64,000 nucleotides of DNA from Candidatus Omnitrophota bacterium (GCA_903860135.1 CAIOPG010000007.1:2100-66099); one strand, 5' to 3'. Shown: positions 10,497-57,514, counted from the stretch's first letter. A program made the numbers and translations. The notes: a model not told the origin generated them from the sequence alone.

Positions 10497-10497
10497 T

Positions 10498-10899: not shown

Positions 10900-10963
10900 C
10901 ACGTCGGGATAGATGAACATTGAAATGTTGTAATTATAACTTAAATTGTTGAGGCGTAGTGAG

Positions 10964-26764: not shown

Positions 26765-27919
26765 ATGACATTGTCTGACATGGCCTACATAGATCGTTGT
26801 GTGAACCTGGAAGCGTTGTTAAAACAGAAGTCTTATTTTCTTCTGGGTCCGCGGCAAACAGGAAAAAGTTCATTAATACACCATAGCTTTCCTAGAGCCA
26901 AAGTTTATAACTTGCTGGATAATGCCTTGTTCCTTGAATTAAACAGCCGTCCTGGCCGGTTAAAGGAAGAGGTGTCCGCCAAAGACAAGCTTGTTATCAT
27001 CGACGAGATACAGCGTGTGCCGCAACTCTTGAATGAAGTGCACCTGCTCATTGAGGAGCGAGGGGTGCATTTTTTGTTAACAGGATCGAGCGCGCGTAAA
27101 TTGCGTTCGGGTGGCGTGAATCTTTTAGGTGGGCGTGCCCGGCAAGCTTACCTGCATCCTTTTGTAACGGTTGAGCTGGGGAAGAAATTTGATTTGGGCC
27201 GTGCCCTTAACGCCGGATTGATCCCGTCGATATATTTTTCCAATAACCCTGTCGCGGATCTGGCGTCTTACGTTGGTTCTTATCTCAAGACAGAGATTGC
27301 GTCCGAGGCGTTGACCCGTGATGTGCCGGCATTTTCACGCTTCCTGGGTGTTGCCGGACTGTGCAATGCGACCATTGTGAATTTCACGAATGTCGCCAAT
27401 GACGCGCAAGTCAAGCGGACGACAGTTTACGAATACTTTGAAATATTGAAAGACACCCTGCTCGTGCGCGAATTGCCCGCGTTCCGTAAGAGTATAAAAA
27501 GGAAGCCTGTCTGTTCATCCAAATATTATTTCTTTGATACGGGAGTGGCGCGGCAATTGCAAGGCCGCACGGCGATTACACCCGGGACGCCGGAATACGG
27601 GGATGCTTTTGAGACATTTATTGTGAATGAGGTTTTTGCTTTCAGCGACTATGTGCGTCCTGTTGCCATGAGTTTCTGGCGTACGAGCGCTCATTGTGAG
27701 GTCGACCTTGTTCTGGATGATCATATCGCTATTGAGATCAAGGCCCAACAGCAGGTGCGCGTTGAGGATCTTAAAGGCTTAAAAGCGATCGCCGAAGAAG
27801 CTTCTTTTAAGCGTATGATTTGTGTTTGTCTGGAGAAGCGCCCGCGCAAGGTCGGCGGGATCGAGATATTGCCGTATCAGGAATTTCTGGGAATGTTATG
27901 GGGAGGACGGGTGTTGTGA
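26765..27919 (+). CDS. AAA+ ATPase of the AAA_14/DUF4143 family (ATPase domain plus C-terminal PD-(D/E)xK-like nuclease-fold domain)
   Basis: Walker A LLGPRQTGKSSL; Walker B LVIIDEIQ; C-terminal CEVDLVLDD...IEIK resembles a restriction-endonuclease-like core. Confidence 0.85.
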   Translation: MTLSDMAYIDRCVNLEALLKQKSYFLLGPRQTGKSSLIHHSFPRAKVYNLLDNALFLELNSRPGRLKEEVSAKDKLVIIDEIQRVPQLLNEVHLLIEERGVHFLLTGSSARKLRSGGVNLLGGRARQAYLHPFVTVELGKKFDLGRALNAGLIPSIYFSNNPVADLASYVGSYLKTEIASEALTRDVPAFSRFLGVAGLCNATIVNFTNVANDAQVKRTTVYEYFEILKDTLLVRELPAFRKSIKRKPVCSSKYYFFDTGVARQLQGRTAITPGTPEYGDAFETFIVNEVFAFSDYVRPVAMSFWRTSAHCEVDLVLDDHIAIEIKAQQQVRVEDLKGLKAIAEEASFKRMICVCLEKRPRKVGGIEILPYQEFLGMLWGGRVL

Positions 27920-27998: not shown

Positions 27999-28763
27999 AT
28001 GCTGAAGAAAAGGATTCCGTTAAAGTCAATGGCCTATGCGTATGGCTGGGTGCCGGATATCCCTGACAGCCGCGACCTTTATTATAGCGCGATCCGCATC
28101 AAGGTGAAACTTGCCCCGGCGGTTGATCTGCGCCCGGCGTGTTCAACGGTTGAAGATCAGGGGCAATTGGGCAGTTGTACGGCCAATGCGCTGGCCGGGA
28201 ATCTTGAATTCCTCGATAATAGTGTGGATAATGCGTACACGGATGTGAGCCGGCTTTTTATTTATTATAATGAGCGGGTGCTTCAAGGTTCGGTGGATGC
28301 TGATTCTGGTGCTTCGTTGCGTAACGGCATTAAGACGCTGGCGAAAACGGGTGCCTGTTCGGAGATCTCTTGGCCGTACGACATCGCCCGTTTTGCCGAA
28401 AAGCCTTCAGTGCCCTGTTATACAGAAGCGGCACAGCACCGCATTGTTTCGTATCACAGGCTTGTTGATTTGAATGAAATGCTCTCCTGTTTGTCCGAAG
28501 GGTTTCCTTTTGTATTCGGTTTTGCGGTTTACGAAAGCCTGCAAACGCCGGAGGTCGCGCGTACGGGCAAGGTGCCGATGCCCAAAAAGACCGAGCGGAT
28601 GCTCGGCGGGCACGCGGTTATGGCCGTCGGGTATGACCAGAAGAAAAAACATTTTATTGTCCGCAATTCCTGGGGCGAAAGCTGGGGCATGAAGGGCTAT
28701 TTCACGATGCCGTTTGCCTACATTGAGACCTTGGCGGCGGATTTTTGGACGGTGAGGAAATGA
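27999..28763 (+). CDS. Papain-family (C1A) cysteine peptidase, small cytoplasmic form without signal peptide or propeptide
   Basis: Catalytic-triad signatures in canonical order: QGQLGSCTANA (Gln oxyanion + Cys), GGHAVMAVGYD (His), RNSWGESWGMKGYF (Asn-Ser-Trp); strong RBS AAGGAGG 7 nt upstream of ATG 27999. Confidence 0.8.
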   Translation: MLKKRIPLKSMAYAYGWVPDIPDSRDLYYSAIRIKVKLAPAVDLRPACSTVEDQGQLGSCTANALAGNLEFLDNSVDNAYTDVSRLFIYYNERVLQGSVDADSGASLRNGIKTLAKTGACSEISWPYDIARFAEKPSVPCYTEAAQHRIVSYHRLVDLNEMLSCLSEGFPFVFGFAVYESLQTPEVARTGKVPMPKKTERMLGGHAVMAVGYDQKKKHFIVRNSWGESWGMKGYFTMPFAYIETLAADFWTVRK

Positions 28764-28870
28764 TTTGTATTGAGGGTTATCATTTGTTTTTTGTTGATGT
28801 ATGATGATGTGTTATTAATTGGAAAAGAATAAGAATTATTTCTGTGTCTATAGGCAGGGGGCAATGATTT

Positions 28871-29935
28871 ATGACAAATGAGGTAGTTATGACAGCAATG
28901 TTGGTTGGTGGGAAAAAGATTTTCAGAGGGAGCCCTTGTTTTGTTATTGCCGAGATCGGCCATAATCACCAGGGGGATTTTCAGAAAGCCAAAGAGATGA
29001 TACGTTCGGCAGCCGAGTGTGGTGTTGATGCCGTAAAATTTCAGAAAAGGGATAATCGCAGTCTTTTCACAAAAGCGATGTATGCCAAGCCTTATGATAA
29101 TGAGAACAGTTTTGGAAAGACATACGGAGAACATCGTGAATTTCTGGAGTTTGGCTGGGATCAGTATGTTGAGCTTAAGGAAGAGGCGCACAGGTGCAAG
29201 GTTGCTTTTATGTGTACGCCGTTTGATGTCACCAGTGTTGATTTTCTCGAGAAGCTTGATATCGATGGGTATAAGATTGCTTCTGGTGATATTACCAACA
29301 CCCATCTTCTGGAGTATGTGGCACGCAAAGGCCGTCCGGTTTTTGTTTCGACCGGAGCCAGCACGATGGATGAAATACGTTCTGCCTACAAATGTATTAA
29401 GCTGCATAATGACCAGATATGCCTGTTGCATGCGGTCAGCTCATATCCAGCTAATTATAATGATTTGAATTTACGTTTTATTGAGGTGCTACGCCATGAA
29501 TTCCCAGATGTCATTATTGGTTACTCTGGCCATGATAGCGGGATTCTAGCGGGGGTTGTTGCGTATATGCTTGGGGCAACGGTCCTTGAAAAGCATTTTA
29601 CGCTTAATCGTGCCTGGAAAGGGACAGATCACCGGTTTTCTCTCGAGCCCGTTGGGATGCGCAAGCAAGTCAGGGATCTGCGGCGTATCGATGAATCTTT
29701 GGGGTCGGGGTTGAAAGTATTGCAGCCTTTCGAGGTTGAATTTAGGGCGAAACTTGGGAAAAGTCTATATTTTAAGGGTGCGCATAAGGCGGGTCATATT
29801 TTGGCTCGCGAAGATGTTTCTATCAAAGCTCCCGGGGGAGGTATCCCTCCGTATGATCTGGAGAGGATTATTGGTAAGAAGCTTGTTAAGAACGTAGCAG
29901 AAGAGCATCTTTTGACTATGGGAGATCTGGAGTGA
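28871..29935 (+). CDS. NeuB-family ulosonic/nonulosonic acid synthase (Neu5Ac/KDN-type, possibly a 9-phosphate synthase) with C-terminal SAF domain
   Basis: CFVIAEIGHNHQGDFQKAKEMIRSAAECGVDAVKFQKR and the downstream TIM-barrel pattern; C-terminal antifreeze-like SAF region. Confidence 0.85.
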   Translation: MTNEVVMTAMLVGGKKIFRGSPCFVIAEIGHNHQGDFQKAKEMIRSAAECGVDAVKFQKRDNRSLFTKAMYAKPYDNENSFGKTYGEHREFLEFGWDQYVELKEEAHRCKVAFMCTPFDVTSVDFLEKLDIDGYKIASGDITNTHLLEYVARKGRPVFVSTGASTMDEIRSAYKCIKLHNDQICLLHAVSSYPANYNDLNLRFIEVLRHEFPDVIIGYSGHDSGILAGVVAYMLGATVLEKHFTLNRAWKGTDHRFSLEPVGMRKQVRDLRRIDESLGSGLKVLQPFEVEFRAKLGKSLYFKGAHKAGHILAREDVSIKAPGGGIPPYDLERIIGKKLVKNVAEEHLLTMGDLE

Positions 29936-29942
29936 GGTTTTT

Positions 29943-30446
29943 ATGTTGACGCACGAGGCATTTAAAGAGCGGTTAAAACAGATAAAGCTTGTTGTTTTTG
30001 ACTTCGATGGTGTTTTTACGGACAACAGGGTCTTTGTTTTTCAGGACGGGAGGGAAGCCGTTGCCTGTTCCCGGGGCGATGGGATGGGAATATCGCTCAT
30101 GCGTAAGGCCGGGGTTGATATGTTTGTTCTTTCGACAGAGGAAAATCATGTGGTTGCAGCCCGCTGCCGTAAATTGCTCCTGCCGTATGTTCATGGCTGT
30201 GATGACAAGAAAAATTTTCTTCAAGAGGAACTTTCGCGTCGCTGTCTTGTGTGGGAAGATGTTCTGTTTATGGGCAATGATGTTAATGATGCCGCGTGTT
30301 TAGCGGCGGCAGGGTGCGCGGTCTGCCCCGTCGATGCGCATCGGGCAGTTATACAATATGCGCATTATGTTACCCGGTTGCCCGGCGGCGCTGGAGCCGT
30401 CAGGGAAGTTTGTGACTTTTTTTTACAGGTGAATCATGCAAAATAA
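29943..30446 (+). CDS. HAD-IIIA phosphatase of the KdsC family (3-deoxy-ulosonate 8/9-phosphate phosphatase-like)
   Basis: Motif I VVFDFDGVFTDN, 167 aa capless HAD, conserved GNDVND motif IV. Confidence 0.75.
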   Translation: MLTHEAFKERLKQIKLVVFDFDGVFTDNRVFVFQDGREAVACSRGDGMGISLMRKAGVDMFVLSTEENHVVAARCRKLLLPYVHGCDDKKNFLQEELSRRCLVWEDVLFMGNDVNDAACLAAAGCAVCPVDAHRAVIQYAHYVTRLPGGAGAVREVCDFFLQVNHAK

Positions 30447-31248
30447 CAAGCAGATATTATTTGGGTTAAATGGCAAGGTTGTTATTGTTACCGGTGCGGC
30501 GGGCCAGTTGGGCAATCAGTATGTCCGTGCGTTGCTTGATGCCGGAGCGAAAGTGGTGGCTCTAGACCTTGACCTTAAAAATTTAGGATCCCGCTTGGCT
30601 GACCTTGAGCTTGACGGCTTGTTGTTGCTTGAGGCGGATATTACTGACCGGGCTTCTCTTGAGAGTGCCTTGCAGGTGATATTGAAGAAATTTGGCGGTG
30701 TGCAGGCACTGGTGAATAATGCGGCCATTGATGCGCCACCGCATATGAAGTCAGCGGCATTAACAGGGCCATTTGAGACTTATCCTAAAGATGTCCTTCA
30801 AAAAATGTTCGATGTGAATTTAACCGGGAGTATTCTTTGCTGTCAGGTTTTCGGAGGGCATATGGCACGGCACGGCGGTGGCAGTATTATCAATATTGGT
30901 TCAATCTATGGCATATTAAGCCCTGATCAACGGCTTTATACGTATAAAGAAAAGCCTTTCTTTAAGCCTGTAGGGTATTCGGTAACCAAGTCTGCGGTAT
31001 TAAATTTGACGCGTTATCTGGCGACTTACTGGGCTGACAAGAATGTGCGGGTTAATACATTAACACTGGCCGGGGTGTTTAATAATCAGGATGAGGAATT
31101 TCTGCGGCGTTATACGGTAAAGGTGCCGCTGGGGCGTATGGCGCGGCCAGATGAGTATAACGGAGCTGTTATTTTTTTAATTTCGGATGCTTCCTCCTAT
31201 ATGACAGGATCTAATATGATCGTTGATGGCGGTTATAGTGCGTGGTGA
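30436..31248 (+). CDS. Short-chain dehydrogenase/reductase (classical SDR)
   Basis: TGAAGQLGN Rossmann motif, NNAA, catalytic Y...K region; 270 aa. Confidence 0.85.
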   Translation: MQNNKQILFGLNGKVVIVTGAAGQLGNQYVRALLDAGAKVVALDLDLKNLGSRLADLELDGLLLLEADITDRASLESALQVILKKFGGVQALVNNAAIDAPPHMKSAALTGPFETYPKDVLQKMFDVNLTGSILCCQVFGGHMARHGGGSIINIGSIYGILSPDQRLYTYKEKPFFKPVGYSVTKSAVLNLTRYLATYWADKNVRVNTLTLAGVFNNQDEEFLRRYTVKVPLGRMARPDEYNGAVIFLISDASSYMTGSNMIVDGGYSAW

Positions 31249-31261
31249 GAAAGGAAGATAT

Positions 31262-32749
31262 ATGATCAAGTATCAAAATCTTGTGGCGGGGCAATTGACG
31301 GAACCTTTGGCCAAGGGTTATTTTGAGAATGTCAATCCTGCGGACACGGCGGATATTATCGGTCTTTTCCCACGATCTAACCGGGAAGATGTGGCGCAGG
31401 CGGTGGCTGCGGCCCAAAGAGCATTGCCAGCCTGGAAGAATATGAGTGCGCCCAGGCGAGGGGAATTAATCTTTAAGGCTTCCGAGATCCTCTTGCGGCG
31501 CAAGGATGAGTTGGCGATGGTCATTGTCCGTGAGATGGGCAAGACAATGCCCGAGTCTCGAGGGGATATTCAGTCGAGCGCAGATGCGGGGTATTTTGCT
31601 GCTGGTGAGGGGCGGCGTTTGTATGGCCAGACAACGACATCGGCGCTGGACAATCGCCTGGCGATGACGCGCCGGGTGCCTGTCGGGGTATGCGGGTTGA
31701 TCACAGCCTGGAATGCCCCTATGGCGATCATCACATGGAAACTTTTTCCGGCGCTTGTTTGCGGCAATACCGTGGTGTTGAAGCCGTCGGAAGATACGCC
31801 CATGACGGCGCATCTGCTCGGTGAGGTCCTCAAAGAGGCTGGATTTCCTGACGGGGTTGTGAATATTGTTTATGGCTTCGGGCCTGAGGTTGGAGAGGCG
31901 CTGGTGGCGCATCCGGATGTGAAGCTTGTTTCGTTCACGGGGTCGTCCAAGGTGGGCAATGCGATCGCGGCTGATTGCGGGCGATTGATGAAGCGCTGTT
32001 CTCTGGAACTTGGCGGCAAGAATGCCCTGATCGTGATGGAGGATGCTGATATCGCGGCTGCAGCAAAAGCTGTTGCTGCCGGAGCCTTTTCCACGGCGGG
32101 ACAGCGGTGTGCGGCTACAAGCCGCGTCCTTGTCCATGATAAGGTTTATGATGTTTTTATTAAACTGTTATTAACGGAAACCAGGGCGATGAAAGTTGGT
32201 CCGGGGATGGATCCGGACACCAAGGTTTGTCCGATCATCAACGAGCGTCAGTACAAACGTATCCTGGAATATATTGATGAAGGTAAGCAAGCCGGTTTTG
32301 AACTTTTGTATGGCGGGAAAGTGTTCGATGCGGGGAGGTGTGCTCAAGGCCGGTATATCGAGCCGACTATTTTTGCCGGTGTTGATATTGATTCACGTTT
32401 AGCACAGGATGAGATATTTGGCCCTGTGCTGGCGGTGTTCAGGGTGGGTTCGTTTGATGAAGCGATGGCCAAGGCCAATGCGGTTAGTTACGGATTGACG
32501 GCGTCAATTTATACGCAGGATGTTTCCCTGGCCATGGTGGCGCTTGATCGTTTTGAGGCGGGGTGCTGTTATGTTAATGCGCCGACTTTCGGGTCGGAAC
32601 CGCATATGCCTTTTGGTGGTGTAAAGCTGTCGGGGCTAGGCGCGCGTGAACCGGGGACGCAGGCGCTGGATGTGTTCAGTGAATGGAAAACGATTTATAT
32701 TGATTATTCGGGCGGTGTTCAGCAATCGCAGTACAGGATGAATAAATAA
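31262..32749 (+). CDS. NAD(P)-dependent aldehyde dehydrogenase
   Basis: ELGGKNA (catalytic Glu) and GQRCAATSR (catalytic Cys) motifs; about 495 aa; ATG 31262 after RBS. Confidence 0.9.
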   Translation: MIKYQNLVAGQLTEPLAKGYFENVNPADTADIIGLFPRSNREDVAQAVAAAQRALPAWKNMSAPRRGELIFKASEILLRRKDELAMVIVREMGKTMPESRGDIQSSADAGYFAAGEGRRLYGQTTTSALDNRLAMTRRVPVGVCGLITAWNAPMAIITWKLFPALVCGNTVVLKPSEDTPMTAHLLGEVLKEAGFPDGVVNIVYGFGPEVGEALVAHPDVKLVSFTGSSKVGNAIAADCGRLMKRCSLELGGKNALIVMEDADIAAAAKAVAAGAFSTAGQRCAATSRVLVHDKVYDVFIKLLLTETRAMKVGPGMDPDTKVCPIINERQYKRILEYIDEGKQAGFELLYGGKVFDAGRCAQGRYIEPTIFAGVDIDSRLAQDEIFGPVLAVFRVGSFDEAMAKANAVSYGLTASIYTQDVSLAMVALDRFEAGCCYVNAPTFGSEPHMPFGGVKLSGLGAREPGTQALDVFSEWKTIYIDYSGGVQQSQYRMNK

Positions 32750-32752
32750 GGT

Positions 32753-33598
32753 ATGGCTATGGATCAACAGCGGATAGGGGAGTTGGTCAGGGTTTCAGCA
32801 CGTGTTCGGCAGCTTATCGTCGAAGTTCTGATCTGCGCGGGCTGCGGCCATCCGGGAGGTGCTTTTTCAAGCGTCGACCTGATGGTGGGGTTATATTTCC
32901 ATGCCCTCAGGATCGATCCGAAACGTCCGAGTGCTCCGGATAGAGATTTATTTGTGTTGAGTAAGGGGCATTCATCTGTTGGCCTTTACACGGTGCTTCA
33001 CGCGCGTGGGTTTCTTGATGAAAAAACGCTGATGACGTTTCGTCAAGATGGCAGTGCCCTCGGCGGTCATCCGATCAAGGACAAGGTTCCCGGTATTGAG
33101 GTGAGCACGGGATCATTGGGGCATGGTTTTTCTGTGGCGGCAGGGATGGCGCTGGGGATCAAGAAGGACGGGCAAGCTAAGCGTGTTTTCGTTATGGTCG
33201 GCGATGGAGAATGTCAGGAAGGTTCTGTTTGGGAAGCGGCGATGTTTGCCGCGCATTACAAGCTGGATAATCTGGTGGCTATCGTTGACCGTAACAGGAT
33301 ACAGATCGATGGGTTTACCGAGGATATTCTGGCGCTTGAGCCTATGGTGGACAAGTGGGAAGCGTTTGGGTGGGCTGTGCGGCGTATTAACGGACATAGC
33401 ATGACAGAAATCGTTGCTGCTATGGATGCCTTGCCGTTGGGGAAAGGGCGCCCATCGGTCATTATCGCGGATACGGTAAAAGGTAAAGGGGTTTCTTTCA
33501 TGGAGAATAATCCTGCCTGGCATGGTGGCGGGATATCTGGTGCTAATATTGAAATCGCACGGGCGGATACATATTGGCCTGGGGACAAGGGAGTATAA
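32753..33598 (+). CDS. Transketolase, N-terminal (thiamine diphosphate-binding) subunit of a split transketolase
   Basis: GHPGGAFSSVDLMVGLYF...GDGECQEGSVWEA ThDP-binding motifs; 281 aa. Confidence 0.85.
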   Translation: MAMDQQRIGELVRVSARVRQLIVEVLICAGCGHPGGAFSSVDLMVGLYFHALRIDPKRPSAPDRDLFVLSKGHSSVGLYTVLHARGFLDEKTLMTFRQDGSALGGHPIKDKVPGIEVSTGSLGHGFSVAAGMALGIKKDGQAKRVFVMVGDGECQEGSVWEAAMFAAHYKLDNLVAIVDRNRIQIDGFTEDILALEPMVDKWEAFGWAVRRINGHSMTEIVAAMDALPLGKGRPSVIIADTVKGKGVSFMENNPAWHGGGISGANIEIARADTYWPGDKGV

Positions 33599-33600
33599 AC

Positions 33601-34545
33601 ATGTCCAAGCAATCTATTCGACATGTTTATGGTGCTTGCCTGACCGAGCTGGGCAGGAAATATCCTCAGCTCATGGTTCTCGATGCAGATCTCAAGGAAT
33701 CAACGCAATCGATACAATTCGAGCGGGTATTCCCGGATCGCTACATTGAGTGCGGGATCGCCGAGCAGAATATGTTGTGTGTTGCCGCTGGCTTGGCCTT
33801 AGTCGGAAAAATCCCGGTGGTGCATTCTTTCGCGGCCTTTATAGCCATGCGAGCCTGTGAACAGGTGCGGACCTCCATTGCGTACCCCGGACTTAATGTC
33901 AAGATCGTAGGCACTCATGCCGGTGTGACCGCAGGGAGTGCTGGCACGACGCATCATGCGCTTGAGGATATTGCGATCATGCGGGCGATGGCGGGGATGA
34001 CGGTTTTTGTCCCTGGAGATGCGCGGGAGTTAGAACAGGTGATCGCTGCGGCTTTTGTGATCAATGGCCCGGTGTATATCCGTCTGGGTGCGATTGACTA
34101 TGAGGATGTGTACCGTGACAGCGATCAATTTATTTCTGGCAGGGCAACGCTATTACGCCCGGGGAATGATGTGACGATTATGACTACCGGACATTTGATG
34201 CACGCCGGGGTTGTGGCGGCGGATATCCTTAAGGATCAACATGGGATCAGCGCCAGGGTGTTGCAAATGGCTTCGATCAAGCCGCTGGATCATGCGGCGA
34301 TCGTGGCGGCGGTGAGGGAGACGGCCGGAATCGTGACGGTTGAGGATCATAATATTTTAGGCGGGTTGGGTGGCGCGGTTTGTGAGGCAGCATGCGCGGC
34401 CGGAGGTGCGCGCGTGGAGCGTATTGGCGTGAAGGATGGCTTTTGCGGGGTTGGTTCCTGCGCATTCTTGCTCCAACAACAGAAGGTGACAGTTGACAGC
34501 ATTGTTTTGGCCGTGCTTGATATTTGTTGTCAGAAGAGGGGTTGA
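33601..34545 (+). CDS. Transketolase, C-terminal (pyrimidine-binding + C-terminal domain) subunit
   Basis: Pyr domain pattern YIECGIAEQNM...FAAFIA; starts 2 nt after the N-terminal subunit stop. Confidence 0.85.
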   Translation: MSKQSIRHVYGACLTELGRKYPQLMVLDADLKESTQSIQFERVFPDRYIECGIAEQNMLCVAAGLALVGKIPVVHSFAAFIAMRACEQVRTSIAYPGLNVKIVGTHAGVTAGSAGTTHHALEDIAIMRAMAGMTVFVPGDARELEQVIAAAFVINGPVYIRLGAIDYEDVYRDSDQFISGRATLLRPGNDVTIMTTGHLMHAGVVAADILKDQHGISARVLQMASIKPLDHAAIVAAVRETAGIVTVEDHNILGGLGGAVCEAACAAGGARVERIGVKDGFCGVGSCAFLLQQQKVTVDSIVLAVLDICCQKRG

Positions 34546-36023
34546 TGACGCATGTTGAAAATCAGATGGGGAATTTGAAGCAAAGGATCCTGCACGGAGG
34601 GTCGTGGATGCTCTTTAGCCGGGTTGTTATTCAAATCCTTTCTTTGTTGCGAACGGCTGTTACGGCACGCATCCTTGTCCCCGAGGACTTTGGTTTGTTA
34701 GGGATAGCGGTGATCGTTGTGGCTTTTATTGAGCGGGTTACAACGGTTAATTTAAATCTCTTTTTGATGCAAAAGACAGAGAGCATCCACGAGGACATTG
34801 ACACTATTTGGACAATCGGTGTTTTAAAAGGGATATTCTTTTATGGGATTATTTTCTTTAGCGCGCCTTTTGTTGTCGGTTTCTTCGGGACGCCAGGAGC
34901 GGTGAATGTTTTAAGGGTGATAGCCTTGGTCTTTGTTATTAATTCTTTTGTTAACGGGGCGCTGGTTTATTTGCAAAAGAATATGGAGATGGAGAAGCTT
35001 TCGTATTCCAAGATCGTGGCGGCTATAGTTGAAACAGGGGTCACCCTGGGCATGGTATTTCTTTTAAGGAATGTTTGGGCCATTATTTTTGGTACGCTTG
35101 CCAGTTATTTGACCAATATGCTCATGTCGTTCTTGATTTATCCCAGGATGCCGCGGCTTGAGATAAAATGGGAGAAATTAAAGGATTGTTTTTTGTTTGG
35201 CAAATGGTTGTATTTTGGGAAAATGACAGCTTATTGTATTCAGTATGGCGACAATGCGACTGTCGGGAAAATGATGGGGCAGGGAGCTTTGGGGCTTTAT
35301 CAGATGGCGTATCGTTTGGGGATGCTTCCTTTTGACGAGTTGAGTCAGGCATTGAACAATATTGTTTATCCGGTTTATATTAAATTAAAAACTGAAGACG
35401 CACGGCTAAAGAAATTCTTTCTAAAAAGTATTGAATGGCAGGTCGCCGTGATTATCCCGCTTGTGATCATGATGGTTTTCTTTAGTAAAGGTGTTGTATC
35501 CCTTCTTTTAGGTGACAAGTGGCTAAATATGGTTGTTTGTTTTCAGATTATTGCTATTGTTGGTTTCTTTAAACATTTTCATAGTCATAATGGCCTTTTG
35601 TTGTTGGCTAAAGGGAAGCCACAGGTTGCTGCCTGGGGAGGAGCCATTCAACTGGTTATTATGGGGGCATTGATTATCCCCTTGACGTTATGGATGGGGA
35701 TCGAAGGCGCAGCCACTGCTGTTTTATTGGGTACTTTTATTGCAGCACTATTTTCCTTGTTCATGGCTTTCAAAGAGGTACGTTTACGTATAACGGATCT
35801 TGGGAGTGCTTTGGCCGGGCCGTTGTGTGCGTGTATTTTCATGTCATTGGTTTTGTGGGGATTTTCATGGTGGATCGCTGCTCATGCTATGGGTGGGATG
35901 GTTGTGGGGATGGGGCTAAGTTTGTTTGTGTATCTTGGAGTTTTATTATTGTTTGATCATTGGCAGGCGGGGGAGCTTTTAATAGATTTGAGAAAATGGA
36001 CTGGTTGGAAGTTCTTGGGGTAA
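34545..36023 (+). CDS. Second Wzx-like flippase (MOP superfamily polysaccharide biosynthesis protein)
   Basis: About 14 TM helices, Polysacc_synt-type N-terminal pattern; ATG 34545 overlaps the upstream stop (ATGA). Confidence 0.65.
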   Translation: MTHVENQMGNLKQRILHGGSWMLFSRVVIQILSLLRTAVTARILVPEDFGLLGIAVIVVAFIERVTTVNLNLFLMQKTESIHEDIDTIWTIGVLKGIFFYGIIFFSAPFVVGFFGTPGAVNVLRVIALVFVINSFVNGALVYLQKNMEMEKLSYSKIVAAIVETGVTLGMVFLLRNVWAIIFGTLASYLTNMLMSFLIYPRMPRLEIKWEKLKDCFLFGKWLYFGKMTAYCIQYGDNATVGKMMGQGALGLYQMAYRLGMLPFDELSQALNNIVYPVYIKLKTEDARLKKFFLKSIEWQVAVIIPLVIMMVFFSKGVVSLLLGDKWLNMVVCFQIIAIVGFFKHFHSHNGLLLLAKGKPQVAAWGGAIQLVIMGALIIPLTLWMGIEGAATAVLLGTFIAALFSLFMAFKEVRLRITDLGSALAGPLCACIFMSLVLWGFSWWIAAHAMGGMVVGMGLSLFVYLGVLLLFDHWQAGELLIDLRKWTGWKFLG

Positions 36024-36037
36024 TGGAGGGTTACAAG

Positions 36038-36817
36038 ATGAAAGTTGTTATTTTAGCGGGCGGGTATGGGACGCGCATCAGCGAAGAATCCCATCTTAAA
36101 CCTAAACCCATGATCGATATCGGCGATAAGCCGATGCTTTGGCATATCATGAAGATCTACGCTCATTATGGTTTTAATGACTTTGTGATCTGTTGCGGAT
36201 ACAAGGGATATATGATCAAGGAGTATTTCGCGAACTATTATTTGCATCAATCTGATGTGACGTTTGATTTTTGCGGGCAAAACAAAATGACGATTCATAA
36301 TAATATTGCCGAGCCATGGAAGGTTACGCTGGTGGATACGGGCAAAGACACGATGACGGGCGGCCGTATCAAGCGTATCCAGCCATATCTGGGTAACGAA
36401 CCCTTCTTCTTGACATATGGCGATGGCGTGGCCGATGTGGATATTAAGAAACTCCTGGCCTTTCATTGTGCGCATGGGAAGAAGGCCACGTTAACAGCGA
36501 TTCAACCTGAGGGGCGTTGGGGGACGATTGCTGTCGGGGAAGATGCTCATGTGCAGTCATTTACAGAAAAACCAAGGGGTGGTAATTCCTGGGTTAATGG
36601 CGGTTTTTTTATCCTTCAGCCTGACATTTTTGAGTATATCGCTGATGATCAGGTGTCCTGGGAAGGTGAATCGTTGAAGAAAATTGCACAGATCGGCCAG
36701 TTGAAAGCCTTTCAGCATAATGGATTCTGGCATGCCATGGATACCATGCGTGACAGGGTGATGCTCGAGGATTTCTGGAAGAGTGGGAAGGCACCATGGA
36801 AAGTGTGGAAAGATTAA
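36038..36817 (+). CDS. rfbF: Glucose-1-phosphate cytidylyltransferase
   Basis: MKVVILAGGYGTRISEESHLKPKPMIDIGDKPMLWHIMKIYAHYGFNDFVICCGYKGYMIKEYFANYYLH is near-canonical RfbF/DdhA. Confidence 0.9.
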   Translation: MKVVILAGGYGTRISEESHLKPKPMIDIGDKPMLWHIMKIYAHYGFNDFVICCGYKGYMIKEYFANYYLHQSDVTFDFCGQNKMTIHNNIAEPWKVTLVDTGKDTMTGGRIKRIQPYLGNEPFFLTYGDGVADVDIKKLLAFHCAHGKKATLTAIQPEGRWGTIAVGEDAHVQSFTEKPRGGNSWVNGGFFILQPDIFEYIADDQVSWEGESLKKIAQIGQLKAFQHNGFWHAMDTMRDRVMLEDFWKSGKAPWKVWKD

Positions 36818-37905
36818 TGAGGCCCACGGCTATCGATCCTGCCTTTTGGCGGAACAAGAATGTTCTTTTGACCGGACATACTGGTTTTAAAGGAGCGTGG
36901 CTTTCTTTATGGCTTGCCCATATCGGTGCCAGGGTGACAGGCGTTGCGTTACCCCCGCCGACAAAGCCCTCTCTTTTTCGTGCCGCGGAAGTGGACAAGC
37001 TTTTGGCAGCTTCGGTTATCCTGGATATCCGCGACCGCCAGAAACTTGTACGTCTTTTTAAAAAAGTAAAACCTCAGATCGTGATTCATATGGCGGCCCA
37101 GCCTTTGGTGCGGGCGTCGTACCTTGATCCTGTCCTGACGTATGAGACTAATGTGATGGGTACGGTAAATCTTCTTGAAGCAACGCGCGCTGTTTCAACT
37201 GTGCGTGCGGTTGTTAATGTGACGACGGACAAGTGTTATGAGAATATTGAGTCCGATAGAGGCTATCGAGAGGGTGATCCTCTGGGTGGTTATGATCCGT
37301 ATTCCAGCAGTAAGGCATGCGCCGAGATTGTGACAGCTGCGTATAGAAGGTCTTTTTTTAGTTCCAAGGAGTATGTCAAACACGGCGTGGCTATGGCTAC
37401 GGCGCGTGCCGGCAATGTGATCGGCGGCGGGGATTGGGCGAAAGACCGTCTTGTTCCTGATTGTATCCGTTCCTTGATGAAGGGGAAGGATATTATTCTT
37501 CGTCATCCACAAGCGGTGCGGCCCTGGCAGCATGTTTTGGAGCCGCTTTGTGGCTATTTGATGCTGGCGCAGAAACTTTTTCTGAAAGGTCCCGCATTTG
37601 CTTTGGGCTGGAATTTTGGTCCCGAACGCAAGGATGTCTTGACGGTAAAACGTGTTGCTGAATTAACGGCAGACGGGTGGGGCGCTGCTTCTAGTGTTAA
37701 GATTGCACCCGGCCGGCATTTGCATGAAGCGAAACTTTTGATGCTGGACATTCGAAAAGCTAAGAAAGAATTGGGATGGAAACCTTGCCTGAGTGTTCAA
37801 CAGGCTTTATCGTTGACGACCGAGTGGTATCAGGCATGGGCGCAAGGTTCTGATATGCAGAGATTCTCATTAAAGCATATTGATGATTTTCAAAAGCGGC
37901 TGTAA
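36817..37905 (+). CDS. rfbG: CDP-glucose 4,6-dehydratase
   Basis: VLLTGHTGFKGAWLSLWL N-terminus and extended-SDR pattern; alternative upstream ATG at 36796 is possible. Confidence 0.85.
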   Translation: MRPTAIDPAFWRNKNVLLTGHTGFKGAWLSLWLAHIGARVTGVALPPPTKPSLFRAAEVDKLLAASVILDIRDRQKLVRLFKKVKPQIVIHMAAQPLVRASYLDPVLTYETNVMGTVNLLEATRAVSTVRAVVNVTTDKCYENIESDRGYREGDPLGGYDPYSSSKACAEIVTAAYRRSFFSSKEYVKHGVAMATARAGNVIGGGDWAKDRLVPDCIRSLMKGKDIILRHPQAVRPWQHVLEPLCGYLMLAQKLFLKGPAFALGWNFGPERKDVLTVKRVAELTADGWGAASSVKIAPGRHLHEAKLLMLDIRKAKKELGWKPCLSVQQALSLTTEWYQAWAQGSDMQRFSLKHIDDFQKRL

Positions 37906-37952
37906 GTGAGTGTAATTCAGTAAAGAATTATTGTTTCAATTAGAAGGGGATT

Positions 37953-38483
37953 ATGAAATTCAAGGATATCGGGTTGAATGGTGTTTTTTTGATTGAACTT
38001 GAAAAAAGAGAGGATGCTCGAGGATTCTTTGCAAGGGCATGGTGTCGGGAAGAATTTGCGCAGGCGGGACTTGTCCATGATATTGCGCAGGTCAATCTTT
38101 CATTTAATAAGGATAAAGGTACGGTGAGGGGGATGCATTATCAAAAGCCCCCGTATGAAGAAGTCAAGATCGTTTCCTGTGCTCAAGGCGCAATTTTTGA
38201 TGTTGTTATTGATGTCCGCGAAGATTCGCCAACAAAATTTCAGTGGTATGGCGTTGAACTTACGGCAGGCAATGGCAAAATGTTGTATGTTCCTAAAGGT
38301 TTTGCGCATGGTTATCAAACAATACAGGAAGAAACAGCGGTTATTTATTTTGTTTCACAGGCCTATGTCCCATCTTCGGAAAATGGAGTTCATTGGGCTG
38401 ACCCGCGCATGGGTGTTGAGTGGCCCATTGTCAATCAAGTTATAGTATCAGACAAGGATGCGGCTTGGCCGCTGGTGAGATGA
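37953..38483 (+). CDS. RmlC-like cupin: NDP-4-keto-6-deoxyhexose 3,5-epimerase family
   Basis: LIELEKREDARGFFARAW...GMHYQ...FVPKGFAHGYQT epimerase motifs. Confidence 0.8.
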   Translation: MKFKDIGLNGVFLIELEKREDARGFFARAWCREEFAQAGLVHDIAQVNLSFNKDKGTVRGMHYQKPPYEEVKIVSCAQGAIFDVVIDVREDSPTKFQWYGVELTAGNGKMLYVPKGFAHGYQTIQEETAVIYFVSQAYVPSSENGVHWADPRMGVEWPIVNQVIVSDKDAAWPLVR

Positions 38484-39427
38484 ATAACAGAGGCAGATTA
38501 TTTATTACGGGGGCGTCAGGATTTATCGGTTCTCATGTTGTCATGGAGGCCTTGCGTCGTGGATGGGAAGTGGCAGCCCTGGTTCGCAGGGGGGATGATG
38601 TGTGGCGGTTGGCAGGGAGCTTGGACAGGATCCGTATTCTTTATGGTGATCTTGATGAATTGAAGGGCTTCGCCGGTGAATTGACGGGATGGCGGCCAGA
38701 TGTGTGTATTCATTTGGCATGGAATGTAGAGCCAGGGTCATACCTTGAATCTTTGGATAATATTAAATGTTTGAACAACACCATTGAGCTTGAAAAGACC
38801 ATGTTTGATATGGGGTGTTCTATTTTTGTTGCGGCGGGGACTTGCGTGGAATATGGAGCATCGTTGGTGCCCATTTCTGAGGAAGCGCTTGCTGTGCCTC
38901 AAACTGTTTATGCCGCGGCGAAGCTTTCTGCTTGTATCCTGGGAGAGCAGATAGCCAAGAAGTATGGAAAAGTTTTTTCATGGGGGAGGATTTTCTTTGT
39001 GTATGGTCCTCGAGAAGATCGGCGACGCATGGTGCCAGGACTTATTTGTTCTTTGACTGAGGGGAAAGTATTTCAGGCAAGTGCAGGAGATCAGATCAGG
39101 GATTATCTGCATGTAGCGGATGTGGCCGCTGCATTCCTTGTTATTGTTGAGGCGAAAGCCAGTGGTGTTGTTAATATTTGTTCTAGTGTTGGGATCCCGG
39201 TTAGAGATATTATGTTGGAAATAAAGCGACAGATACCAACGGGGCAGATTGAGTTCGGCGCCATAGCGTTGAGGCCGACGTGGGATCCGGCCTGTGTTGT
39301 TGGAGATAACCGTTGCCTGCGGGCATTAGGGTGGGAGCCGGGTTACAGATTGAGTGAAGGTCTTGCTGATACGATTTCTTGGTGGGGGCAGCACTTGAAT
39401 AGTTCGCGTAAAGGCAACGTTTTATGA
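38480..39427 (+). CDS. NAD-dependent epimerase/dehydratase family (extended SDR; likely NDP-sugar 4-reductase/epimerase)
   Basis: LFITGASGFIGSHVV Rossmann motif; YAAAK catalytic pair; ATGA overlap with the upstream gene. Confidence 0.8.
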   Translation: MNNRGRLFITGASGFIGSHVVMEALRRGWEVAALVRRGDDVWRLAGSLDRIRILYGDLDELKGFAGELTGWRPDVCIHLAWNVEPGSYLESLDNIKCLNNTIELEKTMFDMGCSIFVAAGTCVEYGASLVPISEEALAVPQTVYAAAKLSACILGEQIAKKYGKVFSWGRIFFVYGPREDRRRMVPGLICSLTEGKVFQASAGDQIRDYLHVADVAAAFLVIVEAKASGVVNICSSVGIPVRDIMLEIKRQIPTGQIEFGAIALRPTWDPACVVGDNRCLRALGWEPGYRLSEGLADTISWWGQHLNSSRKGNVL

Positions 39428-40605
39428 AGTGCCCAGTATGCTTGGCATCAGATCATGAAGTTTTTTGGGAAAAAGCACAGGTCCCTGTTCTACAAAACGC
39501 ACCGCTTCCGGATGAAATTTCAGCGCGGTCGGTTGTTCGTGGTCGTTTGAAATTTGTATTATGCCGGGCATGTGGTTTTGCTTTTAATGCGGGGTATGTT
39601 TCTTCATTGATCAAGTACGATGAACAATATGACAATCAGCAAGGTTTCTCGGGTGTCTTTGCAAAGCATTTGCAGGGTCGTATCGAAAGATTGTTGGATC
39701 TTGGTGTCCGTGATCGGCGCATTGTTGAGATCGGGTGTGGTCAAGGGGAGTTCTTGAATGAGTTGGTGCAGAAGGCCGGCGGGCATACCGAGGGGGTTGG
39801 CTATGATCCGAGTTATGGCGGCGCGGAGGTGCTTCAGGGCGGTAAAGTTAGTTTTGTGAAAAGCTATTACGACCGGGAGTGTGTATCTGGTGCCTCGGAT
39901 ATTGTCCTTTGTCGGCATGTTATTGAACACATCGCTGGTCCGGTTGAGTTTTTGGGGATGATTGCCGCCACGCTTAAAGGTGTTGATTCACGGGTATATC
40001 TTGAAACGCCGTGTTTGGAGTGGATATTGCGCCGAGGGGTTGTGTGGGATCTTTTTTATGAACACTGTTCTCTTTTTACTGTTGGGTCTTTAAGAGTGGC
40101 GTTGGAAAGAAGTAATTTGTCAATGCTTGCGGCGAGTCATGTATTTGAGAAACAGTATTTGTGGGGCGAAGCAGGGATCGGCTCTGAAGCTGCTTTCTCT
40201 GGTTGTTATCAGCTGGAGATGGGAAGCTTATTAAACGCAGCGGCAGGCTTTAAGTTGCAACAGGAAAAAAATCTGGCAAGATGGAGCCATAAGCTTCAGC
40301 TATGGCATAAATCTTCAGGGCGGGTTGCCGTTTGGGGGGCTGGTGCTAAAGGTGTGACTTTTGTCAATATGGTTGATGGCGATAAGGAGTTGATAGATGT
40401 TGTGATTGATATTAATCCGAACAAGCAAGGTAAGTTTGTTCCGGGAACAGGGCATGAGATTATAGGTCCGCAAGAGATTATGAATAGAGGGATTCGCTGT
40501 GTTGTTGTTTTAAATCCGAATTATGTTGAGGAGATACGGCAGTTGTTAGTGTTGCAGGGGCTGCAGGGGAAGATAGTGCTGGAGAATTTGATGAGCGTAG
40601 ATTAA
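39424..40605 (+). CDS. NDP-hexose C-methyltransferase-like protein (N-terminal Zn-ribbon + class I SAM MTase + C-methyltransferase C-terminal domain; TylCIII-like architecture)
   Basis: CPVC...CRACGF zinc ribbon; VEIGCGQGEFL SAM motif I; long C-terminal Rossmann-like extension. Confidence 0.6.
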   Translation: MKCPVCLASDHEVFWEKAQVPVLQNAPLPDEISARSVVRGRLKFVLCRACGFAFNAGYVSSLIKYDEQYDNQQGFSGVFAKHLQGRIERLLDLGVRDRRIVEIGCGQGEFLNELVQKAGGHTEGVGYDPSYGGAEVLQGGKVSFVKSYYDRECVSGASDIVLCRHVIEHIAGPVEFLGMIAATLKGVDSRVYLETPCLEWILRRGVVWDLFYEHCSLFTVGSLRVALERSNLSMLAASHVFEKQYLWGEAGIGSEAAFSGCYQLEMGSLLNAAAGFKLQQEKNLARWSHKLQLWHKSSGRVAVWGAGAKGVTFVNMVDGDKELIDVVIDINPNKQGKFVPGTGHEIIGPQEIMNRGIRCVVVLNPNYVEEIRQLLVLQGLQGKIVLENLMSVD

Positions 40606-40672
40606 TGGCAGCATGTTAAGCGCAGCACTTCCCAATAACGAGAAGAAATAATACTACGGAGGGTCGGCAATC

Positions 40673-41749
40673 GTGTGGCAAAAAGAATTCTTAAAGAAGA
40701 GTGATGGCTTGAGAGAGTCTCTGGGTTATCAGAATTATCTTCGATATCGCCCGTTAATTGGTGCCATGATTGATGAGATGTTTGTTAAGAGTTCCTCGGC
40801 AAGTCGTTATTGGCAGGAGGAGATCGCCGGGTTTGAATATCTTTTTGATGCTTCGCCTGTTCTGATCGATGCATTTCGGCAGCATTGTTATCATTTGACG
40901 GGCATTCATTCGTATGCTTACCGCGACCACCATGCAAGGTTGAAAAACAAGATCGCACAAAAGCTTTCTATGTTTGGCAAAGAGAAAGGAGCTGCCGGCC
41001 TTTGCGTCCCTGAATCAGCCATGCTCGGCGGGTTTGGGTATGAAATAAAGGGGCAAAGGTATAATGCGGATACATTAAAATATTACGAAAACCTTATTGC
41101 CTTGAATAAGTATGGGGTTTTAGATAAATTACGGCAATGTTCGGATAGAAAAGTTGTTCTTGAAATCGGAGGGGGATGGGGCGGCCTTGCGTATCAGTTT
41201 AAGACGCTGTTCCCAAAGATTACGTATGTTATTGTTGATCTTCCCTTCACACTGCTTTTTTCTTCCATTTATTTAAGTACGGTTTTCCCAAGGGCGAAGA
41301 TCTTAATGTATGAGAAAGATACGATTCTTGAAAAGATGAAGGATATCGCGGGTATTGATTTTATTTTTCTTCCTCATTATTTCTTTGATGATATTAAAAT
41401 GAAGGATATTTTTCTTGCCATGAATACGTCTTCTTTTCAAGAAATGACCACCGAACAGGTAAGGAATTATGTTCATGGTCTAGCCGGTATGGGCTGTGAG
41501 TGGATATATTCCTACAACAGGGATGTCTCTCCCAATAATGATGAAATTTCTTCTGTAAGCAGTATCCTGGGTGAGTGCTATGACCTAAGACCGATTGAAT
41601 TTGATTATCATTTTAATGCAAGGCATCCTTTACTAAGTTACATGAAACGATTGTCATATCAGGTTAAGCGGAAATTTATTGTTTCAGCTGAGAGTGAGCG
41701 TTTGGAATACAAGCATTTATTAGGGACATTGAAAACTGCCAAGAGGTAA
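40673..41749 (+). CDS. Class I SAM-methyltransferase-like protein, paralog A of a three-member family in this window (putative sugar O-methyltransferase type)
   Basis: VLEIGGGWGGLAY motif I; shares the architecture G-rich motif ... VDLP ... FP.AKI ... F.EM ... NR with ORFs 55521 and 56576; GTG start after GGAGGG. Confidence 0.45.
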   Translation: MWQKEFLKKSDGLRESLGYQNYLRYRPLIGAMIDEMFVKSSSASRYWQEEIAGFEYLFDASPVLIDAFRQHCYHLTGIHSYAYRDHHARLKNKIAQKLSMFGKEKGAAGLCVPESAMLGGFGYEIKGQRYNADTLKYYENLIALNKYGVLDKLRQCSDRKVVLEIGGGWGGLAYQFKTLFPKITYVIVDLPFTLLFSSIYLSTVFPRAKILMYEKDTILEKMKDIAGIDFIFLPHYFFDDIKMKDIFLAMNTSSFQEMTTEQVRNYVHGLAGMGCEWIYSYNRDVSPNNDEISSVSSILGECYDLRPIEFDYHFNARHPLLSYMKRLSYQVKRKFIVSAESERLEYKHLLGTLKTAKR

Positions 41750-41765
41750 GCGGAGATAAAAGCAT

Positions 41766-54780: not shown

Positions 54781-54796
54781 TCGGGAGGGATGGCGT

Positions 54797-55507: not shown

Positions 55508-55520
55508 CAAAGGGCTGGGC

Positions 55521-57496: not shown

Positions 57497-57514
57497 AAAA
57501 GAGTAGGTGATATA

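Follow-up and report, generated by a model that had tools for sequence, protein, structure and literature searches.

A conserved gene cassette with a NANS-type synthase and a transketolase-like enzyme is a candidate source of a non-canonical CMP-ulosonic acid

We analyzed a 64,000-nucleotide (nt) stretch of DNA from a Candidatus Omnitrophota bacterium (GCA_903860135.1, CAIOPG010000007.1:2100-66099; hereafter, the window), in which six plus-strand genes at positions 28871-34545 encode a synthase of the NeuB family, a KdsC-like phosphatase of the HAD type, a short-chain dehydrogenase/reductase (SDR), an aldehyde dehydrogenase (ALDH), and the two subunits of a transketolase (TK)-like enzyme (TK-N and TK-C). 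Together with a gene for a cytidine monophosphate (CMP)-transferase of the CTP_transf_3 family, these genes recur side by side in more than 15 phyla, mostly in environmental, uncultured lineages, and very probably represent a conserved, dedicated cassette for a CMP-activated, non-canonical 3-deoxy-2-ulosonic acid of a surface glycan. More tentatively, with slightly less than even confidence, we regard the six genes, the CMP-transferase gene at 43413-44111, and probably the gene that follows it as one copy of this widespread cassette. That the SDR, TK, and ALDH shorten the side chain of the ulosonic acid is possible, though doubtful, and is the chemistry we prefer among those considered.

The six open reading frames (ORFs) were found on the plus strand at the positions given by the original prediction, and domain matches confirmed the families it had assigned to all six. 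The longest ORF of the synthase gene opens at 28871, and we place the gene at 28889-29935. The successive junctions are a gap of 7 nt between the synthase and HAD genes, an overlap of 11 nt, and gaps of 13, 3, and 2 nt, and the TK-C stop codon overlaps the start of a wzx flippase gene. Because of these gaps and overlaps of at most 13 nt and the last stop overlapping the wzx start, the six genes are read as one operon. The gene calls of the source contig start at 28889, 29943, 30436, 31262, 32759, and 33601, and some are slightly shorter. In a scan for regulatory signals, the only promoter-like site was a weak one at 28777-28805, and no terminator within the block was convincing. The catalytic motifs are intact in all six gene products.

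To determine how the genes are distributed, we scanned one genome per GTDB species, using an alignment of the synthase subfamily as query. This yielded 80 loci (49-60% identity) in Nitrospirota, Chloroflexota, Acidobacteriota, Gemmatimonadota, Actinomycetota, Desulfobacterota, Planctomycetota, and Omnitrophota, as well as in Fibrobacterota, Calditrichota, Methylomirabilota, Armatimonadota, cyanobacteria, Alpha- and Gammaproteobacteria, and other lineages. Neighbors on the same strand were counted by profile searches of six-frame translations. Of the loci, 58 extended at least 6.5 kb downstream; among these, an SDR was present in 55, an ALDH in 49, a TK in 44, and a CTP_transf_3 protein in 47; all four were present in 38, and TK and ALDH occurred together in 39. 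The SDR was the most constant neighbor, located at most 2.2 kb from the synthase in 63 of 71 loci. The usual order is synthase-(HAD)-SDR-ALDH-CMP-transferase-TK. Five ORF clusters (c11, c14, c19, c30, and c31) were discarded as antisense artefacts of longest-ORF calling in high-GC loci.

In most of the synthase-anchored loci, the TK is a single, fused protein of approximately 640 amino acids (aa). An alignment of this fused TK was used as query in a second scan, of metagenome contigs, which also gave 80 loci. Where at least 6 kb of upstream sequence was available, the synthase was found in 20 of 23 loci, the SDR in 22, the ALDH in 19, and the CMP-transferase in 21; with at least 2.5 kb upstream, an ALDH or a CMP-transferase was present in 40 of 41. 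The relatives of the split TK that were looked up were all (4/4) located in synthase-HAD-SDR-ALDH-(CMP-transferase)-TKN-TKC cassettes. The six-gene order of the window is identical in locus L003, from a close relative of the window organism, with 76-83% identity. Thus, the block recurs in related genomes and, from both the synthase and the TK anchor, across phyla, showing that the SDR, ALDH, and TK genes are not an unrelated operon, an outcome that the original prediction had named as one that would speak against it.

Two cultured organisms carry the cassette. In the complete genome of Thermosulfuriphilus ammonigenes (CP048877.1, locus L167, 9001-16884), it is compact and stands alone, outside any large polysaccharide locus, in the order synthase-SDR-ALDH-fused TK-CTP_transf_3-Capsule_synth-like and without an adjacent HAD gene. 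The other carrier is Magnetospirillum fulvum DSM 13234 (L073, 10001-16625). Both hosts are thus available for testing. As a separate observation, a locus of Margulisiibacteriota (L166) contains genes for an MR_MLE protein of the enolase superfamily and an ApbA-type reductase between the split TK and the CMP-transferase (9939-12003), and also has two additional NeuB genes, of which one is a fusion with CTP_transf_3.

The synthase matched the Pfam NeuB domain PF03102 with 271 bits (cut-off 22.1) and, weakly, the SAF domain (21.4 bits, cut-off 21), and is therefore a member of the PF03102 superfamily, with a NeuB TIM barrel and a C-terminal SAF domain. It stayed under the cut-offs of the NeuB equivalog TIGR03569 (291 bits versus 399.65) and of the PseI equivalog TIGR03586 (236 bits versus 340.25). 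Solved bacterial NeuB, SpsE, and PseI structures were matched with 118-155 bits, with 118 bits for NeuB of Neisseria meningitidis. In BLASTP, human NANS (reference sequence identical to NP_061819.2/SIAS_HUMAN) was matched with 285 bits, at 43% identity over 336 aa and with a single gap. The two proteins have the motif PY..ENSFGKTYGEHR..LEF in common, and the insertion KPYDNENSFGKTYGEHREFLEF seen in the synthase alignments is also present in human NANS. In a neighbor-joining tree of 76 sequences (fast distance method, 100 bootstraps), 64 cassette synthases formed one clade (86% bootstrap), sister to human and mouse NANS (95%). This clade leaves out N. meningitidis NeuB, Bacillus subtilis SpsE, the NeuB of PDB entry 6ncs, the PseI-type paralog of the window, and six second NeuB paralogs of related loci, which are of the Pse/Leg type. 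The synthase thus groups with the 9-phosphate synthases (NANS or Kdn-9-P type, where Kdn is 2-keto-3-deoxynononic acid) and not with NeuB, PseI, or LegI. This agrees with the original prediction of a phosphorylated-route enzyme; a firm grouping with ordinary, non-phosphorylated NeuB enzymes was not observed.

The second gene (29943-30446) encodes a small, C0-type, KdsC-like HAD protein with a DFDG motif. Its Pfam match was weak (20 bits). Against NCBIfam models, it reached 114.8 bits for KdsC (E 4e-33, cut-off 208), 90.5 bits for YrbI (cut-off 106.95), and 87 bits for the KDN-9-P phosphatase NF058599 (cut-off 180), missing each cut-off. The nearest PDB entry was 3mmz, an uncharacterized protein (141 bits), compared to approximately 91 bits for KdsC and 66 bits for BT1713 (3e81 chain), the Kdn-9-P phosphatase of Bacteroides thetaiotaomicron. 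The HAD is thus KdsC-like and yet forms a separate subfamily, neither KdsC proper nor BT1713-type. No kdsA-type gene was detected among the scanned ORFs of the window, and the CTP_transf_3 protein of the pseudaminic acid block located downstream (see below) scored only 75 bits against the Kdo cytidylyltransferase model (cut-off 255).

Several observations link the HAD to the synthase. Natural synthase-HAD fusions exist (P0009 and P0039); the synthase part of P0039 is 62% identical to the window synthase, and its C-terminal domain is 46% identical to the window HAD. In other loci, including L019, L026, L029, L031, L044, L048, L051, L063, L074, and L077, a gene for a HAD-superfamily protein of approximately 265 aa (PF13242, PF12710, PF00702), which is unrelated to the KdsC type, directly follows the fused TK gene. 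Across all fetched loci, 52 had the KdsC-type HAD, 22 had the unrelated HAD, and none of these 74 loci had both. Because of adjacency, fusion, and non-orthologous displacement, we consider the HAD to be functionally tied to the synthase, and presumably it removes the phosphate from the synthase product. The idea that the HAD is a synthase partner and not KdsC proper has thus withstood the scores below cut-off, the fusions, and the mutual exclusion of the two HAD types.

The third gene (30436-31248) encodes a classical SDR with 146 bits for adh_short_C2 and the motifs TGxxGxxG, NNAA, and YxxxK. Its NCBIfam matches were PRK09186 (190 bits), gluconate 5-dehydrogenase (151 bits), and PtmA (136 bits), all under the cut-offs, and its best PDB match was 6uh2 (134 bits). 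Gluconate 5-dehydrogenase and mannonate oxidoreductase, which are among the better models, both oxidize sugar acids next to the terminal CH2OH. An analogy to PtmA was not used, since the likeness is below threshold and PtmA acts, according to the literature, in the early GDP-GlcNAc (guanosine diphosphate N-acetylglucosamine) segment of legionaminic acid synthesis. Similarly, an SDR gene followed by an aminotransferase gene in L030 and L036 was considered as a sign of a keto sugar acid and dropped, because the aminotransferase genes lie beside a gene for a GDP-mannose dehydratase-like protein and probably belong to a perosamine-type branch. The fourth gene (31262-32749) encodes an NAD(P)-dependent ALDH (Aldedh, 562 bits; motifs ELGGK and GQRCAA). 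Its PDB matches were unspecific. The best NCBIfam models, again under their cut-offs, were alpha-ketoglutaric semialdehyde dehydrogenase (500 bits), 2,5-dioxovalerate dehydrogenase (476 bits), and HpaE (441 bits), the substrates of which are aldehydes with a distal alpha-keto acid or carboxylate group.

The last two genes encode a two-chain TK-like enzyme that binds thiamine diphosphate (ThDP). TK-N (32753-33598), the diphosphate-binding subunit, matched Transketolase_N with 181 bits, and TK-C (33601-34545), with the pyrimidine-binding and C-terminal domains, matched Transket_pyr with 134 and Transketolase_C with 77 bits. Against NF004559, the subunits scored 286 and 267 bits separately, the cut-off of 488 being set for a full-length single chain. 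The split TK of Carboxydothermus hydrogenoformans, a canonical enzyme, has the same two-chain architecture and shares all cofactor and catalytic residues; the window TK is 57-60% identical to it, with 287 bits for TK-N against the N chain 6yak and 270 bits for TK-C against 6yaj. The motifs GHP, SKGH, GHP, GDGE, N, and WH are kept, as are E366, R471, position 428, and the N-terminal His cluster (human numbering, which agrees with Q428, H416, R318, and S345 in the alignment), and the ThDP/Mg site is intact. In contrast, positions 423, 424, and 474, which are E, D, and R in the human and C. hydrogenoformans enzymes, are S, A, and A in TK-C of the window. The protein thus has the cofactor-binding and catalytic residues of a transketolase and lacks the substrate-binding Asp and the phosphate-binding Arg. 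Human D424 is, as we assume, equivalent to D469 of Escherichia coli, which would bind either the 2-hydroxyl of an acceptor or, in a donor, the 4-hydroxyl. The E. coli residue equivalent to R474 is presumably R520, a phosphate ligand.

These exchanges are a family trait. In the 120 closest TK-C homologs (57-81% identity), position 423 is T or S in all 120, position 424 is A in 119 and S in one, and position 474 is A in 116; the canonical Asp is found in none. This bears on the most conventional explanation of the locus, in which the synthase, HAD, and CMP-transferase would make plain Kdn or N-acetylneuraminic acid (Neu5Ac), and the SDR, ALDH, and TK genes would be chance neighbors or housekeeping genes. 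It would fit the high identity of the window TK to a canonical enzyme and the membership of ALDH and SDR in generic families. It is contradicted by the loss of the Asp in every one of the 120 homologs, by genes that overlap or are at most 13 nt apart, and by the recurrence of one gene set, in unchanged order, in more than 15 phyla from both anchors, and we consider it very improbable.

The fused TK has gone further. At the human positions, R318 is replaced by V, I, S, or A; S345 by D; H416 by Y or L; E423-D424 by G-P; and R474 by I or S. All four phosphate ligands (R318, S345, H416, and R474) are thus replaced. The pocket changes are convergent between two independent architectures, and the loss of both the Asp and the phosphate Arg in the split and the fused form argues for a non-phosphorylated substrate. 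The exchanges also suggest that whatever lies beside the reacting carbons of the substrate is not a free hydroxyl. By our own reasoning, in a nonulosonic acid in pyranose form, the ring oxygen would be the equivalent of the 4'-hydroxyl of the donor, which would explain the loss of the Asp, and a substrate with a carboxylate instead of a phosphate at its far end fits the lost phosphate ligands. Since the pocket points to a non-phosphorylated substrate, the TK more likely acts after the phosphatase step.

The original prediction had offered another role for the additional genes, namely, that they build or remodel the phosphosugar acceptor. In this case, the SDR, ALDH, and TK would make an unusual aldose 6-phosphate out of central sugar phosphates, through oxidation and the transfer of two-carbon units, before the synthase condenses it with phosphoenolpyruvate (PEP), and the phosphatase and CMP-transferase would finish the product. 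The interconversion of sugar phosphates is the normal reaction of transketolases, and R318, S345, and H416 are retained in the split TK of the window. The conserved synteny would be accounted for as well if the genes supplied a dedicated precursor. However, the fused TK present in most cassettes lacks all four phosphate ligands, and both forms lack R474 and D424, so that the residue reading the 2-hydroxyl of an acceptor is also gone. Moreover, no clear job is left for the ALDH, which before condensation would destroy the needed aldehyde unless it acted at the phosphate-bearing end. We therefore consider precursor building unlikely and favor tailoring of the product after the phosphatase step. 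The other part of the proposal, that SDR, ALDH, and TK lie outside the canonical nonulosonic acid pathways, was upheld, since none of the Kdn and Neu5Ac pathways described so far contains an equivalent of them.

The window contains two CTP_transf_3 genes, at 43413-44111 and 49875-50651. The product of the first, located on the plus strand approximately 9 kb downstream of the six-gene block, matched CTP_transf_3 with 76.5 bits and the PseF model with 140 bits (cut-off 205.7). It is 41-64% identical to CMP-transferases encoded inside or directly after cassettes elsewhere, and its likeness to the second CTP_transf_3 protein is only local (38% over 63 aa). The orthology of this cassette-type CMP-ulosonic acid synthetase to the cassette CMP-transferases implies that the cassette is split into two pieces in the window. 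The next gene (44108-45442, plus strand) had no Pfam match at E<=0.01. L003 (39% identity) and L057 (36%) encode homologs of its product behind their cassette CMP-transferases, and it is distantly similar (25% over 456 aa, E 5e-39) to the PF04464-annotated protein after the CMP-transferase of L166. In other loci, this slot is occupied by a Capsule_synth (KpsC/KpsS-like) protein. We tentatively propose that 44108-45442 encodes a TagF/Glyphos_transf-like transferase that uses the CMP-sugar. The module foreseen at 28871-34545 is thus correct in its six genes and too short in its extent, since the CMP-transferase and probably the transferase at 43413-45442 belong to it.

The enzyme classes, the affinity to NANS, the coupling of the phosphatase, the cassette including its CMP-transferase, and the altered TK pocket, all of which emerged from computation, can be combined into the following model. 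The NANS-type synthase would condense PEP with mannose 6-phosphate (Man-6-P) to Kdn-9-P, Man-6-P being the most economical acceptor because the cassette has no amino-sugar genes. The HAD phosphatase would then release Kdn. The SDR would oxidize the penultimate carbon, C8, generating the terminal HOCH2-CO-CHOH ketol that a TK donor needs, and the TK-like enzyme would remove the C8-C9 ketol, leaving a C7 aldehyde on the pyranose ring. The ALDH would convert this aldehyde to a carboxylate, yielding a 3-deoxy-hept-2-ulosaric diacid, which would be activated by the cassette CMP-transferase and installed on a glycan by the linked transferase. The first two steps rest on homology, fusion, and synteny, and steps three to five on enzyme classes and active-site changes; the model leaves the order of CMP activation and tailoring, and the stereochemistry, unspecified. 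If correct, it would be the first biosynthetic route known to lead, by enzymatic side-chain trimming of a Kdn-type acid, to a CMP-activated sugar of the ulosaric (dicarboxylic) type, a claim that we consider unlikely at this stage.

Several findings weigh against this model. Four loci (L053, L059, L060, and L075) have synthase, SDR, and ALDH genes without a TK gene within 7-10 kb; six (L025, L037, L104, L119, L133, and L142) have a TK and no ALDH; and three Chloroflexota loci lack the SDR. A linear SDR-TK-ALDH route does not predict such variants unless the partner genes are located elsewhere. The extra ORFs of the variant loci had no informative Pfam match; in the ALDH-less loci, they gave GDSL-like acylhydrolase or methyltransferase domains or no match at all, and no candidate for an ALDH replacement was found among them. 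A HAD gene of either type is adjacent to only approximately 60% of the cassettes. The likenesses of SDR and ALDH to named models are all below cut-off and within generic families, and are hints only. The window-type split TK retains three of the four phosphate ligands (R318, S345, and H416), and may still accept a phosphorylated substrate. Finally, the synthase tree was built without any Bacteroides Kdn-9-P synthase (BT1714).

The four loci without TK would agree with a simpler oxidation, from alcohol to aldehyde to acid, in which SDR and ALDH convert the terminal CH2OH of a Kdn-like acid to give a nonulosaric acid without shortening, and TK is an accessory enzyme for salvage or for an alternative branch. 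In these loci, the order is synthase-SDR-ALDH, partly with the CMP-transferase. An accessory role does not explain, however, why TK and ALDH co-occur in 39 of 58 loci, why two TK architectures have convergent pockets, or why the fused TK family is almost confined to the cassette, with ALDH or CMP-transferase as neighbors in 40 of 41 loci. We rate terminal oxidation as improbable.

The altered TK pocket could also serve the opposite reaction. For non-natural, non-phosphorylated aldehydes, engineered E. coli TKs reportedly need to lose the Asp and the phosphate Arg (D469/R520), and the losses in the cassette TKs resemble these exchanges. The SDR could oxidize the terminal CH2OH to an aldehyde in a KdnB-like manner, and the TK could add a two-carbon ketol from hydroxypyruvate or a ketose, giving a C11 diulosonic acid, with the ALDH acting on a side product or in an alternative branch. 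KdnB is a precedent for terminal oxidation, and bacteria do contain higher-carbon CMP-ulosonic acids that are still unassigned (SugarBase preprint). Against such an extension, ALDH and TK would compete for one aldehyde, leaving the strongly conserved ALDH without a role; the higher-carbon acids described so far are C10 diamino sugars, neither C11 nor nitrogen-free; and the cassette has no aminotransferase. It appears as improbable as terminal oxidation, and side-chain trimming remains the reading we prefer.

Comparison with known systems showed partial likeness in each case. B. thetaiotaomicron has the Kdn-9-P synthase BT1714, the phosphatase BT1713, and a CMP-Kdn synthetase (Wang et al. 2008, as cited in PMC6200933). 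NANS, BT1714, and the Kdn-9-P synthetase of Prymnesium parvum condense PEP with a hexose 6-phosphate, and the P. parvum enzyme accepted only Man-6-P among seven sugars tested (PMC6200933). These phosphorylated Kdn and Neu5Ac routes (BT1714/BT1713 and vertebrate NANS/NANP) resemble the cassette in the NANS-type synthase, the small C0-type HAD, the CTP_transf_3 protein, and the dispensability of a UDP-GlcNAc (uridine diphosphate N-acetylglucosamine) 2-epimerase. They differ in the HAD subfamily and in the conserved SDR, ALDH, and TK-like enzymes of the cassette. In the Kdo8N pathway of Shewanella, the 3-deoxy-manno-octulosonate 8-oxidase KdnB acts together with the aminotransferase KdnA (Gattis et al. 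2013, as cited in PMC5125639). As described there, the side-chain end of the free ulosonic acid is dehydrogenated after the phosphatase and before CMP activation, as we propose for the cassette; in that account, however, KdnB is an iron-type alcohol dehydrogenase and not an SDR, the carbonyl is transaminated and neither cleaved nor oxidized, and neither TK nor ALDH takes part.

A precedent for a specialized TK is SqwGH, the 6-deoxy-6-sulfofructose transketolase of the sulfo-transketolase pathway (PMC9594981, PMC11659671). Compared by description, it is likewise a two-subunit TK paralog that removes C2 ketol units from a non-phosphorylated ketose; unlike the cassette TK, it is catabolic, acts on a sulfonated hexulose, and has no link to ulosonic acids or CMP. 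The predicted product has the skeleton of Dha (3-deoxy-D-lyxo-hept-2-ulosaric acid), which occurs in plant rhamnogalacturonan II, prasinophyte thecae, and lipopolysaccharide cores of Rhizobiaceae, and the activated form of which was still listed as unidentified in a 2012 review. The likeness concerns only the skeleton, a 3-deoxy-2-ulopyranosaric acid with carboxylates at both ends. By our reasoning, a NeuB-type condensation on Man-6-P would give another stereoisomer; Dha as the exact product was set aside, since the C4 configuration would be opposite and canonical TK stereochemistry would not suit the D-lyxo form. Recent mass spectrometry detected unassigned CMP-linked keto acids in environmental bacteria, among them higher-carbon CMP-ulosonic acids in Magnetospirillum gryphiswaldense (SugarBase preprint). 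The latter were not adopted as the cassette product, since the preprint describes C10 diamino sugars and does not connect them with a TK gene. A full-text literature search found no paper describing the combination of synthase, SDR, ALDH, and TK genes; in a paper on the Cobetia capsule, the word transketolase occurs only in the legend of a generic pathway.

The window also contains a separate pseudaminic acid pathway at 45.5-53 kb, with PseB (506 bits, cut-off 408), PseC (497 bits, cut-off 424), PseI (441 bits, cut-off 340.25), and its own CMP-transferase (49875-50651). The second CMP-sugar synthetase and separate downstream pathway that had been anticipated are thus present, and the locus harbors two distinct pathways for keto-acid sugars, with a CMP-transferase for each. 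PseI (51359-52951) is fused to a C-terminal GNAT acetyltransferase domain and is possibly a PseI-PseH fusion. The block further contains genes for a class-III aminotransferase, an aldo/keto reductase, and a xylose-isomerase-like TIM barrel protein. Downstream, at 52948-60855, there are large ORFs without Pfam matches (610, 352, 306, and 601 aa), interspersed with a methyltransferase gene (54797-55507) and a gene for a radical SAM/SPASM enzyme (57515-58468).

The six-gene block is followed by wzx, a cytidine diphosphate (CDP)-hexose branch, two methyltransferase-like genes, and a GT2 gene, and then by the CTP_transf_3 gene at 43413-44111. The genes at 35996-42542, which separate the two parts of the cassette, include the glucose-1-phosphate cytidylyltransferase gene rfbF (423 bits, cut-off 300) and genes for a 4,6-dehydratase, a 3,5-epimerase, a reductase, and a C-methyltransferase; a Pfam-poor gene (358 aa) and one for an O-methyltransferase of the CmcI type come next. 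This suggests a C-methylated and O-methylated 6-deoxyhexose in the same glycan. Upstream, a Wza/Wzc/Wzy/Wzx polysaccharide locus at 4.1-24.6 kb contains glycosyltransferases, a pyruvyl transferase, GH88, and an initiating Bac_transf enzyme. A DUF4143/AAA_14 ATPase gene (26765-27919) lies between this locus and the cassette, and a papain-like Peptidase_C1 gene (approximately 27999-28763) directly precedes the synthase gene, and two short ENA contigs (L001 and L002) share this peptidase-synthase junction. At the start of the window, an AbiEii-type nucleotidyltransferase toxin domain (25-978; type IV toxin-antitoxin or abortive infection) is followed downstream by an MTHFR gene (2744-3613). Every ORF with a family match in the window is on the plus strand. 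The GC skew is positive in every 2-kb bin, with the cumulative skew climbing steadily across positions 1-64000, and the G+C content is approximately 40% at 12-24 kb, in the glycosyltransferase region, versus approximately 50% elsewhere.

CMP-activated ulosonic acids, such as sialic, legionaminic, and pseudaminic acids, Kdo, and Kdn, shape the cell surface and influence phage and host recognition and immune evasion. To our knowledge, all described routes to them use a small, well-known set of enzymes. The cassette adds a TK-like enzyme and an ALDH to CMP-ulosonic acid biosynthesis, as a widely distributed, uncharacterized tailoring module with its own TK family, a ThDP enzyme family whose substrate pocket was redesigned twice, in split and in fused form. 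It also reveals a large group of bacterial enzymes as sister to the animal-type 9-phosphate synthases. The catalog of surface sugars thus probably still lacks a widespread member, and the cassette is a candidate gene set that could match the CMP-linked keto acids left unassigned by mass spectrometry. If the trimming model is true, it would offer a first lead on the biosynthesis of Dha and other ulosaric acids, and it would be a biological equivalent of the periodate truncation of sialic acids, with a Dha-like heptulosaric acid displayed by many uncultured phyla.

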